Assembly (NCBI GenBank): GCA_964573135.1
Contig: CAZNIO010000008.1
Location: forward strand, 1 to 58,633
Direction of reading: 5' to 3'
Source of the DNA: an uncultured Gammaproteobacteria bacterium
GTDB taxonomy: Bacteria; Patescibacteriota; Patescibacteriia; UBA2196; GWA2-42-15
DNA: 58,633 nt
Part shown: one piece after another, positions 10,963-15,913 of the stretch
Layout: each line of letters begins with the position of its first letter
How positions within the stretch are numbered: position 1 is the stretch's first letter
Made by a program: the position numbers and the translations under genes
Notes under the pieces: generated by a model
What the model was told of the DNA's origin: nothing
The model's database searches: none
What the model saw: the letters and a program-made list of their open reading frames with translations, nothing else

Positions 10963-12096
10963 ATGGCCTTAGACACAAATCAGCAAATCAACCAGCTCAT
11001 AGCTAAGTCAAAACAAATTCTAATTGCTTCCCCTGCTAAAAATTCGGACGACAGCCTTTGCTCTTGTCTTGCTCTTTTTAAATTATTTGAAAAAATAAAT
11101 AAACCAGCTGATTTAATCACTGAAAATCCCCAAAAAAATAGGCTAGCCTTTTTGCCCCAAAGCGATAGCATTAAATCAAATATTGACTCTCTACAAAAAT
11201 TAACAATTTCTCTAGATATTAAGGATAATAAGATTAATGATTTTAGTTATGACATTACAGATGATAAGCTCAATATTTTCCTCACCCCTCAAAAAACAAA
11301 TCTAACCAAGGATGACATTTCAATTCAGCAAAGTAGCTTTAAGTATGATTTAATTATTACCATTGGTTCACAAGACTTAGAGTCTCTTGGAGGTTTGTAT
11401 CAAAAAAATACAGACTTTTTTTATTCCACTCCTATTATAAACATAGATACATCTCCAAGCAACGAACATTTTGGCCAAATCAATCTAATCGACTTGAGCG
11501 CCTCATCAACCACAGAAATTATCTTTGACCTTATCAATTCAATAAATCCAAAATTCATCGATGAAGATGTAGCTACTCATCTTCTGGCTGGTACCATTAT
11601 TAAAACAAAAAGTTTTAAAGACCCACGCACCACTCCCCGGTCACTGTCCCTCGCCGCTGATCTTATACGACTCGGGGGCAAAAGAGATTTAATTGTCAAT
11701 CATCTATATGGCAATAAAAAACTATCAACCCTAAATCTCTGGGGAAGAGTCCTGGCTCGTCTAAAACAAGATACTCTCTACAAAATGGCCTGGTCAATGA
11801 TCAGTCAAACTGATTTTGAAAGAGCCGGTGCCACTCAAAATGACCTTCAAGGTATTACCGAAGAAATTCTTCTTAATTCTCCCCAAATCGAAACTATCCT
11901 TATACTCTATGAAACTAAATCAGGTCAAATAGCCGCTGAACTGCATACTTCAAAAAACTACGATGCCCTTGAACTTACTCGCGCTTTTGGACCTTTGGGT
12001 AATACATCTAGAGCTGATTTCTACCTTGAAACCGACAAGCTCTTTGAAGCTGAGGAAATGACTGTCAATCAAATAAGAAGTAGGATAAAAATCTAG
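10963..12096 (+). CDS. DHH-fold phosphoesterase-like protein with degenerate catalytic motifs
   Basis: DHH layout recognisable (ILIASP..SDDSLCS, PIINID, NEHFGQINL, SSTTEIIFDL, VATHLLAG), but DHH reads DTS, the GxxxDT motif reads GTIIKT and there is no GGGH. Confidence 0.7.
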   Translation: MALDTNQQINQLIAKSKQILIASPAKNSDDSLCSCLALFKLFEKINKPADLITENPQKNRLAFLPQSDSIKSNIDSLQKLTISLDIKDNKINDFSYDITDDKLNIFLTPQKTNLTKDDISIQQSSFKYDLIITIGSQDLESLGGLYQKNTDFFYSTPIINIDTSPSNEHFGQINLIDLSASSTTEIIFDLINSINPKFIDEDVATHLLAGTIIKTKSFKDPRTTPRSLSLAADLIRLGGKRDLIVNHLYGNKKLSTLNLWGRVLARLKQDTLYKMAWSMISQTDFERAGATQNDLQGITEEILLNSPQIETILILYETKSGQIAAELHTSKNYDALELTRAFGPLGNTSRADFYLETDKLFEAEEMTVNQIRSRIKI

Positions 12097-12246: not shown

Positions 12247-12921
12247 ATGGCACGCGCAAAAGACCGAGAAAAGGCTCTGTCACTTAGAAAACAGGGCATG
12301 AGTTATAGCCAAATTAAAAAAATAATTGGGGTAGGCAAAGGCACTTTAAGCAACTGGCTTAGAGATCACCCCCTCTCAAAGGAAAGAATCAGGGAGCTCG
12401 TTTACTGTAACGAACAAAGAATAGAGCGCTGCAGGGAAACAAAAAGAAAGAAAAAAGAACAACGATTGCTCAACTATTACAATGAAGAGAAAAAAAATAT
12501 ATTTCCTCTTACAAAACGAGAATTCTATTTGGCTGGACTTGTTCTATACTGGGGAGAAGGGACTAAAAGACACTTAGCTACCCTGGCTGTTACAAATACA
12601 GATCCTGCTGTAATCAAATTCTTTATTATATGGACCATCAAAGCACTGAAATTCCCCAAAGAAAAAATTAAAATGCGCTTACATCTATATACCGACATGG
12701 ATATCAAAAAAGAAACACTCTACTGGTCAAAAACACTGAATATACCCCCAAAACAATTCACCAAGCCATATATCAAGCAAAGTTCAAGTGAAAGAATAAA
12801 TTATAAAGGCAGATTTGGTCATGGAACTTGTGTAGCCCAAATAGGGAATGCGAGGACAACTGAAAAAATTTTAATGGCCCTAAAAGCCATTGCAGACAAA
12901 TATAACGAGGAGCGCCTGTAG
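12247..12921 (+). CDS. N-terminal helix-turn-helix plus single-motif LAGLIDADG-like domain protein
   Basis: HTH-like ALSLRKQGMSYSQIKKIIGVGKGTLSNWL; LAGLIDADG-like FYLAGLVLYWGEG, then LAVTNTDPAVIKFF and YWSKTLNIP; stop codon lies inside the tRNA-Ile. Confidence 0.65.
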   Translation: MARAKDREKALSLRKQGMSYSQIKKIIGVGKGTLSNWLRDHPLSKERIRELVYCNEQRIERCRETKRKKKEQRLLNYYNEEKKNIFPLTKREFYLAGLVLYWGEGTKRHLATLAVTNTDPAVIKFFIIWTIKALKFPKEKIKMRLHLYTDMDIKKETLYWSKTLNIPPKQFTKPYIKQSSSERINYKGRFGHGTCVAQIGNARTTEKILMALKAIADKYNEERL

Positions 12922-12987
12922 CTCAGGGGTTAGAGCACCTGACTTATAATCAGGTTGTCGATGGTTCAAATCCATCCAGGCGCACCA
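12912..12987 (+). tRNA. tRNA-Ile (anticodon UAU), CCA encoded
   Basis: Acceptor GCGCCTG/CAGGCGC, D stem GCTC/GAGC, anticodon arm CCTGA-CT TAT AA-TCAGG, T arm GATGG-TTCAAAT-CCATC, discriminator A plus CCA; 76 nt. Confidence 0.92.
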
Positions 12988-12988
12988 G

Positions 12989-13078
12989 GGACGCATAGCT
13001 CAGTTGGTTAGAGTGCTTGCTCGACACGCAAGAGGGTTTAAAAGGTACAGTGTACCTTTTAAACGGTTCAAATCCATT
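12989..13078 (+). pseudogene. Disrupted tRNA-Val(GAC)-like gene with a 29-nt hairpin in the variable region and no 3' acceptor strand
   Basis: GGACGCA-TA-GCTC-AGTTGGTTA-GAGT, CTTGC-TC GAC AC-GCAAG, hairpin 13036-13064, GGTTCAAATCC, then a T-run instead of TGCGTCC-CCA. Confidence 0.7.
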
Positions 13079-13089
13079 TTTTTGATATA

Positions 13090-13166
13090 GGGCGGTTAGC
13101 TCAGTTGGTTAGAGCGCGTCGTTGACATCGACGAGGTCATTGGTTCAACTCCAATATCGCCCACCA
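13090..13166 (+). tRNA. tRNA-Val (anticodon GAC), CCA encoded
   Basis: GGGCGGT/ATCGCCC acceptor, CGTCG-TT GAC AT-CGACG, ATTGG-TTCAACT-CCAAT, ACCA; 77 nt. Confidence 0.95.
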
Positions 13167-13208
13167 TCATCAAACTTAATTTATTTATTACTTAATTTAT
13201 TTGTTTCT

Positions 13209-13772
13209 ATGCCTAAACTACCAAAAATCCCATATAAACTATTAGAAAAAAACAACAAGGAAAAAAGTTATTGTATGAATTTATCAGATAAGCTCCGTAT
13301 TCTTGCAAAAACCACTGTAAGTTTTCTAGTACGAGATAATGTGGACACCGCTGAAAAAAACTTTCCAGCCATGGAAAAATTATTCAAACAAATCCAGACA
13401 AAACTCCGCCAAAATCCATATCTTTACAGCGTAACACCAATTAATTATGGACTTGAAGAATATATTGAAGCTCTACTTGTCTGGAGTTATATGAATAATA
13501 AACCAATGCCAACCATTGCTAAGCTCAAAGTTACTCCAGAACTTTACCTTGGTGCTTTGTCTGATATGACAGGCGAACTTGTCCGCTTGGCACGTAAAAA
13601 TGAACAACAAGCTAAAAGTATTCATGACTATGTAGCTCATATATATGCCCTAATTATCCCAGTCTCAATTACCAGAAACTCCAATCTCCGCCACAAACTA
13701 GAAACCATTGGTAATAATTTGAAAAAAATTGAAGGCATAATCTACGATTTGAAACTAAGGGACAAAATTTAA
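13209..13772 (+). CDS. Translin/TRAX (C3PO)-family protein (start moved to 13209 because the longer ORF overlaps tRNA-Val)
   Basis: GLEEYIEA and PELYLGALSDMTGELVRLA match the TRAX catalytic motifs (ExxE and DxxGE) as I recall them; all-helical, 187 aa. Confidence 0.82.
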   Translation: MPKLPKIPYKLLEKNNKEKSYCMNLSDKLRILAKTTVSFLVRDNVDTAEKNFPAMEKLFKQIQTKLRQNPYLYSVTPINYGLEEYIEALLVWSYMNNKPMPTIAKLKVTPELYLGALSDMTGELVRLARKNEQQAKSIHDYVAHIYALIIPVSITRNSNLRHKLETIGNNLKKIEGIIYDLKLRDKI

Positions 13773-13778
13773 TACTTA

Positions 13779-14778
13779 CTGTGAATTACGAAACTCCCAA
13801 AAGAGCTCATAATGATGTAAAATTAAGGTAGTGTATTACTAACTAAAATTCTACACCACTATGAGAGCTTTTGTACCCATGTACAATTCAATCAAAGTTG
13901 TAGTCAATTTCTTTAGTAAACAATTACACTTTGATAAGTACAAATCCAAAACAGGTCGAAAGTTAGCTTTACCAATTGAAGATATCGTATCACTTGCTAT
14001 CTTCAAGCAGAAAAACAACATTGCTACAAAACGTGCTCTTTACAACATATTGAAACCAAATTGCTCATACAAGACACTGGTAGTTAATCTGAATAGATGG
14101 TTTTTCCTGGCAGTAATTATCCTAGTCCTTTTGATGAAGTTAAATAGGAGGAATACTCATTTGGTAAAACACATTGATTCCACTGAACTGCCGGTTTGTT
14201 TATTCAAGAATGCCCATGCTCATAAGACCATGAGAGACTACGCTGAATACAGGAAGAAAGGAAATACCACATTTTATGGGCTCAAACTACACATTATTAC
14301 TGATTTGAAACAAAGATTGTTATCAATTAACTTTACTGGAGCCAAGACGGATGATCGGGCAGTGGTCATTAAAATGGCTGACGATTTAACTGGCATATTC
14401 ATGGCTGATGCAGGGTATATATCAGATAAGTTGTCACGAGAATTCTATCAGGAACATAAGCGTGTGTTACTCGCTAAGCCAAGAAGTAATATGAAAAAGA
14501 TGATGACTCAATTTGAAGAAATGCTTTATCGTACAAGGATGTTAATTGAACTAAACTTTAGAGATTTAAAATTATTCCATGGGCTAGTAACTAGCCTGCC
14601 AAGATCAGTTGGAGGATATTTAGCTAACTATATCTACTCCATACTGGCTTATCAAATTGTTTAAATTGTGAAAAAGAACTTTACTACAATTCTACCTATT
14701 AACAGACAAACTTGAGTAATCAAGGATTATTTTGGTTATCCAAGTTTATTCGTTAAATGTGAGTTTCGTAATTCACAG
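13779..14778 (+). mobile_element. IS982-family insertion sequence, about 1000 bp, complete
   Basis: Perfect 18-bp terminal inverted repeats CTGTGAATTACGAAACTC (13779-13796) and GAGTTTCGTAATTCACAG (14761-14778), flanked by a TACTTA direct repeat (13773-78, 14779-84). Equivalent reading: AC...GT ends with an ACTT duplication. Confidence 0.9.
13861..14664 (+). CDS. IS982-family DDE transposase
   Basis: HIDSTELPVC, FYGLKLHII, FMADAGYIS, RMLIELNFRDLK. Confidence 0.88.
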   Translation: MRAFVPMYNSIKVVVNFFSKQLHFDKYKSKTGRKLALPIEDIVSLAIFKQKNNIATKRALYNILKPNCSYKTLVVNLNRWFFLAVIILVLLMKLNRRNTHLVKHIDSTELPVCLFKNAHAHKTMRDYAEYRKKGNTTFYGLKLHIITDLKQRLLSINFTGAKTDDRAVVIKMADDLTGIFMADAGYISDKLSREFYQEHKRVLLAKPRSNMKKMMTQFEEMLYRTRMLIELNFRDLKLFHGLVTSLPRSVGGYLANYIYSILAYQIV

Positions 14779-14794
14779 TACTTATCTCAGCCAC

Positions 14795-14821
14795 AAAACG
14801 ACTGGTCATCCCAGTCGTTTT
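14795..14821. terminator. Bidirectional intrinsic terminator between the translin/IS side and tsaD
   Basis: AAAACGACTGG-TCATC-CCAGTCGTTTT, 11-bp stem. Confidence 0.75.
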
Positions 14822-14838: not shown

Positions 14839-15852
14839 TTATTCCCCCAACCTCAAATTAGCATTTGTCTTTATTTTCTTCCAATCACTAAATTTCTTAT
14901 TCTTAATCTTGTAATACCCAGCCGCTGCAATCATCGCTGCATTATCCCCTGTCATCTTCATATCAGGCACTAATAATTTAACTTTATCTAATTTGCTACC
15001 AACCTCTTTCTTCAATGAATCCCGTAAATTCTCATTAGCCGCCACTCCCCCTCCAAGAAGTATTGTCTTCACCTTAAACTCTTGAGCCGCTTTAATAGTT
15101 TTATTTACCAAAACCTCAACACATGCTTCTTGAAAAGAAGCACACATATCTTGATTTTTTATTCTTCCCTCTCTCATCTTGTAAAGTACCGCTGTCTTAA
15201 TCCCAGAAAAACTAAAATTATAATCTCCCGAATTAATCATCGGTCTAGGCATTTCAACTTTACTTGCGTTTCCTTTCTTGGCTAGCTTAGAAATCACGGG
15301 CCCACCAGGATAGCCCAAATTCATCATCTTTGCCACCTTATCAAAAGCTTCACCCACTGCATCGTCTTGCGTTTCGCCAATTATCTTGTATTTCAAATAA
15401 CTTTCCAGTAATACTAATTGTGTGTGCCCCCCAGAAACTATCAAAGCCAAAGCAGGAAATTTTAATTTACCTAACTTTCTAGAATTACTCATCTCAGCTG
15501 AGTAAATGTGGCCCTCCAAATGGTTAACTGCCACCATTGGCTTCTCCCACGCATAACTCAAAGTTTTACCTGCCTCTACCCCTACTCGCAAACTAGTAAT
15601 TAATCCCGGTCCATTAGTTAGCGCGATATAGTCAATTTGTTTACCTTTTTTTCCTAATACTTTCTCCAAAACAGGTATCATATACTCCACCTGTTTACGG
15701 GCTGCAACTTCCGGCACAATTCCACCATATTTAGCTTGCAACTGAGATGACGATGAAATTACATCTTTAACCACCTTAAAAACACCGTTTTTAACCTCTA
15801 AAACAGCTACCGCAGTCTCATCACAGCTTGTCTCAATGCCAAGTATGCGCAT
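14839..15852 (-). CDS. tsaD: tRNA N6-adenosine threonylcarbamoyltransferase TsaD (start moved to 15852)
   Basis: MRILGIETSCDETA, GGIVPEVAAR, NHLEGH, VSGGHT, DDAVGEAFDK, GDNAAMI. Confidence 0.97.
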   Translation of the reverse strand: MRILGIETSCDETAVAVLEVKNGVFKVVKDVISSSSQLQAKYGGIVPEVAARKQVEYMIPVLEKVLGKKGKQIDYIALTNGPGLITSLRVGVEAGKTLSYAWEKPMVAVNHLEGHIYSAEMSNSRKLGKLKFPALALIVSGGHTQLVLLESYLKYKIIGETQDDAVGEAFDKVAKMMNLGYPGGPVISKLAKKGNASKVEMPRPMINSGDYNFSFSGIKTAVLYKMREGRIKNQDMCASFQEACVEVLVNKTIKAAQEFKVKTILLGGGVAANENLRDSLKKEVGSKLDKVKLLVPDMKMTGDNAAMIAAAGYYKIKNKKFSDWKKIKTNANLRLGE

Positions 15853-15884
15853 AATACTTAAAAGATAACACAATTCCAATGCAT

Positions 15885-15913
15885 TTGACAAATTCCCTAT
15901 CTTTTGATAGACT
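15885..15913 (+). promoter_or_regulatory. Promoter of the secG-SBP unit; overlaps a divergent tsaD promoter
   Basis: TTGACA, 17 nt, TAGACT on +; TTGTCA, 18 nt, TG-n-TATCTT (15867-15862) on -. Confidence 0.55.

Follow-up and report, generated by a model that had tools for sequence, protein, structure and literature searches.

In a 58,633-nt stretch of bacterial DNA (contig CAZNIO010000008.1; hereafter the window), the open reading frame (ORF) at 13209..13772 (+) is predicted to code for a 187-aa TRAX-like nuclease of the archaeal C3PO type, and it lies directly behind two tRNA genes. The sequence identifies the product as a genuine TRAX-like C3PO homolog with an apparently intact catalytic site, and as a new Kuenenbacteria member of a known family. 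By analogy with the characterised enzymes, we expect with high confidence that it acts as a metal-dependent C3PO-type endonuclease. As a whole, the explanation that we favour on balance is that of an archaeal-type C3PO subunit that is co-transcribed with the tRNAs and would clear short RNA together with an NrnA-like partner.

The gene runs from an ATG at 13209 to a TAA stop codon at 13770-13772. A length of 187 aa and an N-terminus reading MPKLPKIPYK recur in ~35 homolog clusters, and the ATG at 13209 is therefore taken as the right start. A TTG at 13122, giving a longer ORF, was rejected since it would read through tRNA-Val and disagrees with the conserved length and N-terminus, and an internal ATG at 13277 was rejected on the same conserved features. 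The missing Shine-Dalgarno motif is uninformative, because only 5 of the 52 ORFs of this organism have one. The Pfam model PF01997 (Translin) matched residues 45-185 with an E value of 3.9e-18 and 66.6 bits, against a cut-off of 25.9, which established the Translin-family membership proposed in a preliminary description of this DNA. Automated pipelines already name the protein 'translin family'. The nearest NCBIfam models (PRK14562, below cut-off) and the UniRef name of one homolog (P0017) read 'haloacid dehalogenase superfamily protein', which looks like a legacy, propagated misnomer, since the translin fold is all-alpha.

Among solved structures, the top relative by sequence was NEQ131, the C3PO of Nanoarchaeum equitans (NeC3PO, PDB 5jr9; E 1.8e-11), followed by human and Drosophila TRAX and by Archaeoglobus fulgidus AfTrax. 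An AlphaFold2 model built from 26 homologs (alignment A1) was all-helical with eight helices, at a predicted local distance difference test score (pLDDT) of 94.2 and a predicted template modelling score (pTM) of 0.88. Foldseek again ranked NeC3PO first (TM score 0.82-0.84, root-mean-square deviation 2.3-2.6 A over ~185 residues), then the TRAX chains of human and fly C3PO, then AfC3PO, with translin chains last. Each of the top 48 Foldseek matches in the PDB belonged to C3PO, TRAX or translin, at TM scores of ~0.7-0.84. TRAX chains outrank translin chains by sequence as well as by fold. The two acidic motifs, EEYIE at residues 83-87 and DMTGE at residues 119-123, are well preserved: E83, E84, E87, T121, G122 and E123 are invariant in A1, as are K34 and R126, D119 is at least 90% conserved, and another bacterial alignment (A2), made independently, shows conservation at the acidic positions as well. 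In NeC3PO the metal ligands are Glu82, Glu85, Asp117 and Glu121, and the RNA is contacted by Ser26, Lys34 and Arg124 (PMC5100593). Pairwise alignment places E84, E87, D119 and E123 on these four ligands, and S26, K34 and R126 on the three contacts, as predicted metal ligands and substrate contacts, respectively. In A1 and A2, these seven positions are invariant or nearly so. The catalytic acidic set had already been described as apparently intact, and all four aligned ligands are indeed invariant or at least 90% conserved. The conserved ligands and contacts and the higher rank of TRAX over translin point to a catalytic subunit of TRAX type, as in the single-gene C3POs of archaea.

NeC3PO is a homo-octamer that cuts single-stranded RNA (ssRNA), single-stranded DNA (ssDNA) and duplexes with Mg2+ or Mn2+ (PMC5100593). 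The window protein belongs to the same size class (187 aa versus ~185 ordered residues in PDB 5JR9/5JRC/5JRE), and, as in N. equitans, there is one family gene in the 58-kb window; a second translin-like ORF was not found anywhere within its 58.6 kb. The differences are an identity of only ~24%, an ultra-small bacterial host from the Candidate Phyla Radiation (CPR), a Ser in the place of Gln20, which is implicated in the purine preference of NeC3PO, and the position of the window gene behind tRNA genes, with oligomer and activity here predicted from sequence. AfC3PO (AfTrax, PDB 3ZC0/3ZC1), also a homo-octameric, single-gene prokaryotic C3PO, has a similar fold (TM ~0.82) but a weaker sequence match (E 3e-3), and differs in having a longer alpha5-alpha6 linker and in having been studied on duplex RNA (PMC5100593). 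Eukaryotic TRAX (human 3PJA chains J-L, Drosophila 3AXJ_B) has the catalytic acidic tetrad, in human HsTrax E123/E126/D193/E197, and the fold in common with the window protein, whereas eukaryotic C3PO is a 6:2 translin:TRAX hetero-octamer that removes passenger strands in RNA interference, a role that is not expected here.

Both tRNA genes in front of the nuclease gene were called by ARAGORN and encode their CCA ends: tRNA-Ile(TAT) at 12912..12987 (+; Rfam 76.8 bits) and tRNA-Val(GAC) at 13090..13166 (+; Rfam RF00005, 67.7 bits). With tRNA-Val ending at 13166 and the ATG at 13209, the distance of 42 nt given in the preliminary description is correct. This spacer (13167..13208, +) is AT-rich and unstructured (minimum free energy -0.2 kcal/mol), and a scan for sigma70-type consensus sites and for terminator-like hairpins revealed neither a sigma70-like promoter nor a hairpin in it. 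We compared it with the other members of a set of 12 distinct Kuenenbacteria-clade loci, consisting of the window, L001-L006, L087, L089, L091, L093 and L175. The tRNA-Ile(TAT)/tRNA-Val(GAC) pair is located 9-82 nt upstream of the translin-family gene, on the same strand, in nine of these 12 loci, and seven of the eight spacers examined, that of the window included, are AT-rich, unstructured and promoter-free. The spacer of L004 measures only 9 nt. The exception is L005, in which the spacer contains a hairpin and a weak promoter-like site. Canonical promoters of the form TTGAAA/TTGATT-N17-TATAAT are present directly upstream of the first tRNA in L002, L004, L006 and L175. Because these spacers lack promoter-like and terminator-like sites, the translin mRNA would, on the simplest reading, be the 3' portion of the tRNA precursor. 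The same layout is known from the E. coli thrU-tyrU-glyT-thrT-tufB operon, a tRNA-mRNA co-transcript in which a coding gene without its own promoter follows tRNAs, whereas co-transcription in the window is predicted from sequence. Altogether, we have moderate confidence that the protein forms a homo-octameric barrel and that its gene is co-transcribed with the tRNAs.

The neighbourhood is conserved well beyond the tRNA pair. Across the 12 loci the block reads, in order, IF-2 (-), a DHH-family gene (+), a sigma70-type promoter, tRNA-Ile(TAT)/tRNA-Val(GAC), translin (+) and TsaD (-), whereby the order of the two tRNAs varies among loci. The tRNA pair has the NrnA-like DHH gene as its conserved neighbour on the upstream side, TsaD is found near translin in 10 of the 12 loci, and past TsaD there are often genes for tRNA-Glu, tRNA-Val(TAC) and tRNA-Ala. 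In the closest relative, L175, the protein is 88% identical. The nearest homologs are annotated as Candidatus Kuenenbacteria or Parcubacteria, and the DNA sequencing runs containing the locus are salt-lake metagenomes. The GC content of the gene is 34.2%, versus 35.4% for the window. The nuclease gene is thus a chromosomal gene of Kuenenbacteria, vertically inherited and of native base composition. Several third-party metagenome-assembled genome records labelled 'uncultured Gammaproteobacteria bacterium' (L002 and others) carry loci that are syntenic with Kuenenbacteria/Patescibacteria, and records labelled 'uncultured Methanosarcinales archaeon' look like members of the archaeal DPANN group. 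The organism labels among L002, L014, L017, L018, L041, L073 and many loci of the second scan described below appear to be unreliable below domain level.

The family was surveyed in two genome scans. The first, pattern-limited and performed on species-representative genomes, gave 251 relatives, and the 80 loci kept from it were from DPANN archaea and CPR bacteria. The other scan, of contigs from one genome per species, gave 554 relatives, and the best 80 of these loci (L095-L174) were used. These 80 are all bacterial and mostly labelled Patescibacteria, with Falkowbacteria, Parcubacteria/Paceibacterota and Moraniibacteria among them. At 50% identity the family comprises 2,489 clusters at E values up to 1e-3, and 1,133 at up to 1e-10. 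As of the 2016 literature, the known bacterial carriers were limited to the phylum Chloroflexi (PMC5100593), and a full-text literature search gave no paper that ties translin to Patescibacteria in substance. The view that bacterial homologs are sparse, also expressed in the preliminary description, can therefore not be maintained, with 554 relatives in one scan and all best 80 loci bacterial.

Other lineages show other conserved contexts. Of the 61 DPANN archaeal loci, 41 have an aspartyl-tRNA synthetase (AspRS)-class gene no more than 4 kb away; it lies directly downstream in 26, and in 14 of these the ORFs overlap. The partner enzymes are of different types (bacterial-type, YbaK-like fusion, GAD-less and archaeal non-discriminating AspRS), with AsnRS sometimes next to them. 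In L035 (3791-6111), for example, translin is followed by AspRS, and one AspRS type, of 744 aa, has a C-terminal YbaK/EbsC-like deacylase domain. Further DPANN neighbours are GatA, TGT, an HD-domain (5'-deoxynucleotidase-like) protein, Ham1 and a metallo-beta-lactamase-like protein (MBL). Divergently upstream of translin, ~40 DPANN loci encode a tandem array of three paralogous multi-pass membrane proteins of 165-200 aa, without a Pfam match, which are preceded by two coiled-coil proteins (L035 1812-3543). In two Patescibacteria loci the order is ArgRS, a TsaB-like gene, translin and Rpe. A large Patescibacteria clade displays yet another order, namely a membrane protein, a PilB-like T2SSE ATPase, translin, a metallophosphoesterase and an inositol-monophosphatase (IMPase)-family protein. 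In L095 (960-5858), for example, where the block extends from the ATPase to the IMPase-family gene, the PilB-like ATPase is a double T2SSE protein and the metallophosphoesterase is YfcE-like. A separate bacterial clade has a Macro-domain gene directly upstream of translin (L081 4402-5555, L082 and L086 3429-4538), overlapping it in L081 and L082; neighbours in this clade include DNA polymerase III delta and glycosyltransferases. Many family members (P0055, P0063, P0064, P0067 and others) have lengths of 360-530 aa, match in two stretches and look like tandem double-translin fusions, possibly covalently linked dimers. In a rough neighbour-joining tree of the homologs, the DPANN sequences form one clade, and the bacterial ones fall into two others outside it. 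Because the latter are not nested among the DPANN sequences of this rough tree, a recent transfer from these archaea was rejected. The tree is distance-based and midpoint-rooted, without support values, and gives no direction or age for any transfer.

Links between prokaryotic TRAX homologs and tRNA biology have been noted before. Clade I SepRS derives from an ancestral operon with an archaeal TRAX homolog (Mukai et al. 2017, PMC5424206). In this SepRS-TRAX operon and in the DPANN translin-AspRS pairs, a prokaryotic TRAX homolog is likewise wired to tRNA-charging genes, whereas the partners in the window are tRNA genes and TsaD, with no aminoacyl-tRNA synthetase. For the role itself the precedent is fungal: the C3PO of Neurospora crassa removes 5' pre-tRNA fragments (Li et al. 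2012, as cited in PMC5100593). It serves here as the model for the proposed role, with two differences, in that it is a fungal heteromer and that the link to tRNA there is biochemical and genetic, whereas here it consists of genomic context. The turnover of pre-tRNA leaders and trailers, which the preliminary description had suggested for the window protein, is a putative function borrowed from Neurospora C3PO. The preliminary interpretation as a whole is plausible but only partly supported.

Based on these comparisons, the following course of events is proposed. The subunits would assemble into a homo-oligomeric, probably octameric, hollow barrel, as expected from homology, in which S26, K34 and R126 would hold short ssRNA, and possibly ssDNA, for cutting by two-metal (Mg2+/Mn2+) catalysis through E84, E87, D119 and E123. 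Transcription of the tRNA precursor would most likely also yield the translin mRNA, as its 3' segment, to be freed by tRNA 3'-end processing. With its mRNA coming from the tRNA precursor, synthesis of the nuclease would scale with tRNA transcription. The weakest step is the last, in which the nuclease would perform a housekeeping clearance of short RNA fragments, including by-products of tRNA processing, and the resulting oligonucleotides would be recycled to nucleotides with the help of the NrnA-like nanoRNase encoded next to it. We have low-to-moderate confidence in this clearance of short ssRNA and pre-tRNA by-products, finished by the NrnA-like enzyme. A tRNA-related role is favoured because the context of tRNA genes or aminoacyl-tRNA synthetases recurs in unrelated lineages, and because of the Neurospora precedent in the form in which it is cited.

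Several observations weigh against this explanation. The tRNA adjacency is broken without loss of the gene in three clade loci: the tRNAs of L089 and L091 are separated from translin by two or three small genes, one of which codes for a pseudopilin, and in L001 an ABC transporter is located upstream and the tRNA is absent. Outside the clade, an adjacent tRNA was missing from all 74 remaining, more distant first-scan loci, among which 12 are bacterial. In 73 of the 80 first-scan loci there was no tRNA within ~4 kb, and the only tRNA of L014 is on the opposite strand, 2.6 kb away. Three further bacterial loci that were checked (L081, L083 and L086) had no adjacent tRNA, and among the 80 Patescibacteria loci of the other scan a tRNA was present in two and adjacent in none. 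Direct tRNA adjacency is thus absent across ~150 homolog loci outside the Kuenenbacteria clade, and of the linkage anticipated among homologs the part within this clade stood, and the family-wide part did not. Since the entire neighbourhood is syntenic in the clade, the adjacency, confined as it is to this clade, may be simple inheritance, or phylogenetic inertia. Moreover, the largest bacterial clade has no link to a tRNA or an aminoacyl-tRNA synthetase, its neighbours being the PilB-like ATPase and the metallophosphoesterase, and another bacterial clade pairs translin with a Macro-domain protein. As to transcription, the promoter scan was limited to sigma70-type consensus sites, and an internal promoter inside a tRNA gene is possible. 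RNA sequencing runs were searched for the window locus and none contained it, and contigs from a groundwater metatranscriptome matched L004 only in conserved tRNA segments, from other organisms.

The alternative that deserves most attention, which we nevertheless consider somewhat unlikely, is a general scavenging or salvage function, in which the nuclease degrades imported or surplus ssDNA and ssRNA in cells that make no nucleotides de novo, and the position behind the tRNAs is inherited synteny. The PilB/phosphoesterase and nucleotide-housekeeping contexts favour such nucleic-acid salvage: among the 80 Patescibacteria loci, which form a sister clade, a PilB-like gene precedes translin in 61, a YfcE-like metallophosphoesterase follows in 50 and an inositol-monophosphatase-family gene is found in 25, pseudopilin genes stand directly upstream in two Kuenenbacteria loci, and the HD 5'-deoxynucleotidase-like, Ham1 and MBL genes of DPANN archaea and the Macro-domain gene are concerned with nucleotide housekeeping. 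NeC3PO cuts ssDNA besides ssRNA (PMC5100593), and synteny of the whole Kuenenbacteria block agrees with an inherited position. PilB adjacency is itself restricted to one clade, however, and salvage accounts neither for the deep-rooted, recurrent association with several kinds of AspRS, with ArgRS or with SepRS nor for the promoter-less spacers behind the tRNAs, down to 9 nt. The salvage and tRNA-related readings are not mutually exclusive. There is also a more general view, which we regard as unlikely, in which prokaryotic TRAX-like nucleases form a tRNA clean-up or quality-control module that is repeatedly wired to tRNA expression and feeds an NrnA-like nanoRNase. If true, this wiring would take the form of AspRS/SepRS operons in archaea, of ArgRS/TsaB in some CPR bacteria and of an mRNA made as the 3' trailer of tRNA-Ile/tRNA-Val in Kuenenbacteria, and nuclease dosage would follow tRNA transcription.

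A more direct action on tRNA or aminoacylation, by cleaving uncharged, mischarged or damaged tRNA or by trimming its ends, seems improbable. The stop/start overlap with AspRS in 14 of the 26 immediately adjacent pairs, the YbaK-like deacylase domain on some partner AspRS, the presence of GatA, TGT, TsaB and TsaD among the neighbours and the published SepRS-TRAX operon (PMC5424206) all agree with it, but its basis is genomic context, and the characterised C3POs enclose short single strands in a closed barrel with little sequence specificity (PMC5100593), while cleavage of mature tRNA is known for no C3PO. That the protein is a non-catalytic, translin-like nucleic-acid-binding protein is very improbable. 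Subunits without catalytic function do exist in the Translin family, and a translin-like conformation is seen in six of the eight subunits of NeC3PO (PMC5100593), but the four metal ligands are invariant or nearly so in bacterial and archaeal homologs, and TRAX chains match better than translin chains. The least probable of these explanations, to which we give hardly any credence, is a mobile-element cargo or defence gene that was integrated at a tRNA gene. The tRNA-Val pseudogene, the inserted helix-turn-helix (HTH) ORF and the IS982 element in the window, detailed below, the tRNA 3' fragment in L005 and a serine recombinase two genes downstream in L093 would fit such a history. The position of the nuclease gene, however, is constant in 12 related genomes while the mobile pieces vary, its GC content is native, and it has no match among the anti-phage and phage models of PADLOC and PHROGs. 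Recent horizontal acquisition was rejected on the basis of this base composition, the conserved synteny and the lack of a PADLOC or PHROGs match.

Prior work on prokaryotic C3PO/TRAX homologs comprises two crystal-structure studies. The data presented here indicate that Patescibacteria commonly carry the family, that it is without exception of the catalytic TRAX type, and that its gene neighbourhoods are of several distinct, conserved kinds: with tRNA genes, TsaD and NrnA, with AspRS, with PilB and a phosphoesterase, or with Macro. These neighbourhoods yield testable hypotheses on the role of the nuclease in organisms whose RNA-decay machinery is minimal and which lack nucleotide biosynthesis. 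The value of the finding lies in these context-derived hypotheses and in the correction of the view that bacterial homologs are rare; by itself, the finding does not reveal a new mechanism.

The gene upstream of the tRNA pair, at 10963..12096 (+), encodes a 377-aa NrnA/TM1595-like DHH/DHHA1 phosphodiesterase of the nanoRNase type, which matched PDB 5o4z (E 3.8e-13) and NrnA 8iu7 (E 1.8e-9), with a weak Pfam DHH match. It is followed by an inserted, lineage-specific ORF at 12247..12921 (+), encoding 224 aa with an N-terminal HTH, which is absent from L175. The TAG stop codon of this ORF falls inside tRNA-Ile, at tRNA positions 8-10. The LAGLIDADG-like string YLAGLVLYWGEG in the ORF raised the suspicion of a homing endonuclease, but this assignment has no database support, HTH-type matches being all that searches of Pfam, NCBIfam, PDB and PHROGs yielded. 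Between the two tRNAs lies a decayed tRNA-Val(GAC)-like pseudogene (12989..13085, +), recognised by alignment with the tRNA-Val of L002, L004, L006 and L087; neither ARAGORN nor Rfam called it. Its first 47 nt are tRNA-like and are followed by a perfect 24-nt palindromic insertion, a remnant of the T-arm and a degenerate 3' end without acceptor strand. A stray 3' fragment of tRNA-Val was found in L005. The region appears to be a hot spot of rearrangement.

Downstream, an IS982-family element occupies 13772..14785 (+; NF033520, E 4.8e-35; PF13612) and is likewise absent from L175. Its transposase ORF spans 13861-14664, and its 28-nt inverted repeats (13772-13799 and 14758-14785) are 89% complementary, the left one starting with the final nucleotide of the TAA that ends translin. 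The element now parts translin from a terminator-like hairpin at 14795..14821 (+), located between translin and the convergent downstream neighbour tsaD (14839..15891, -; PF00814, E 9.7e-87), which encodes the tRNA t6A37 threonylcarbamoyltransferase. Presumably, this hairpin was formerly shared by translin and tsaD.

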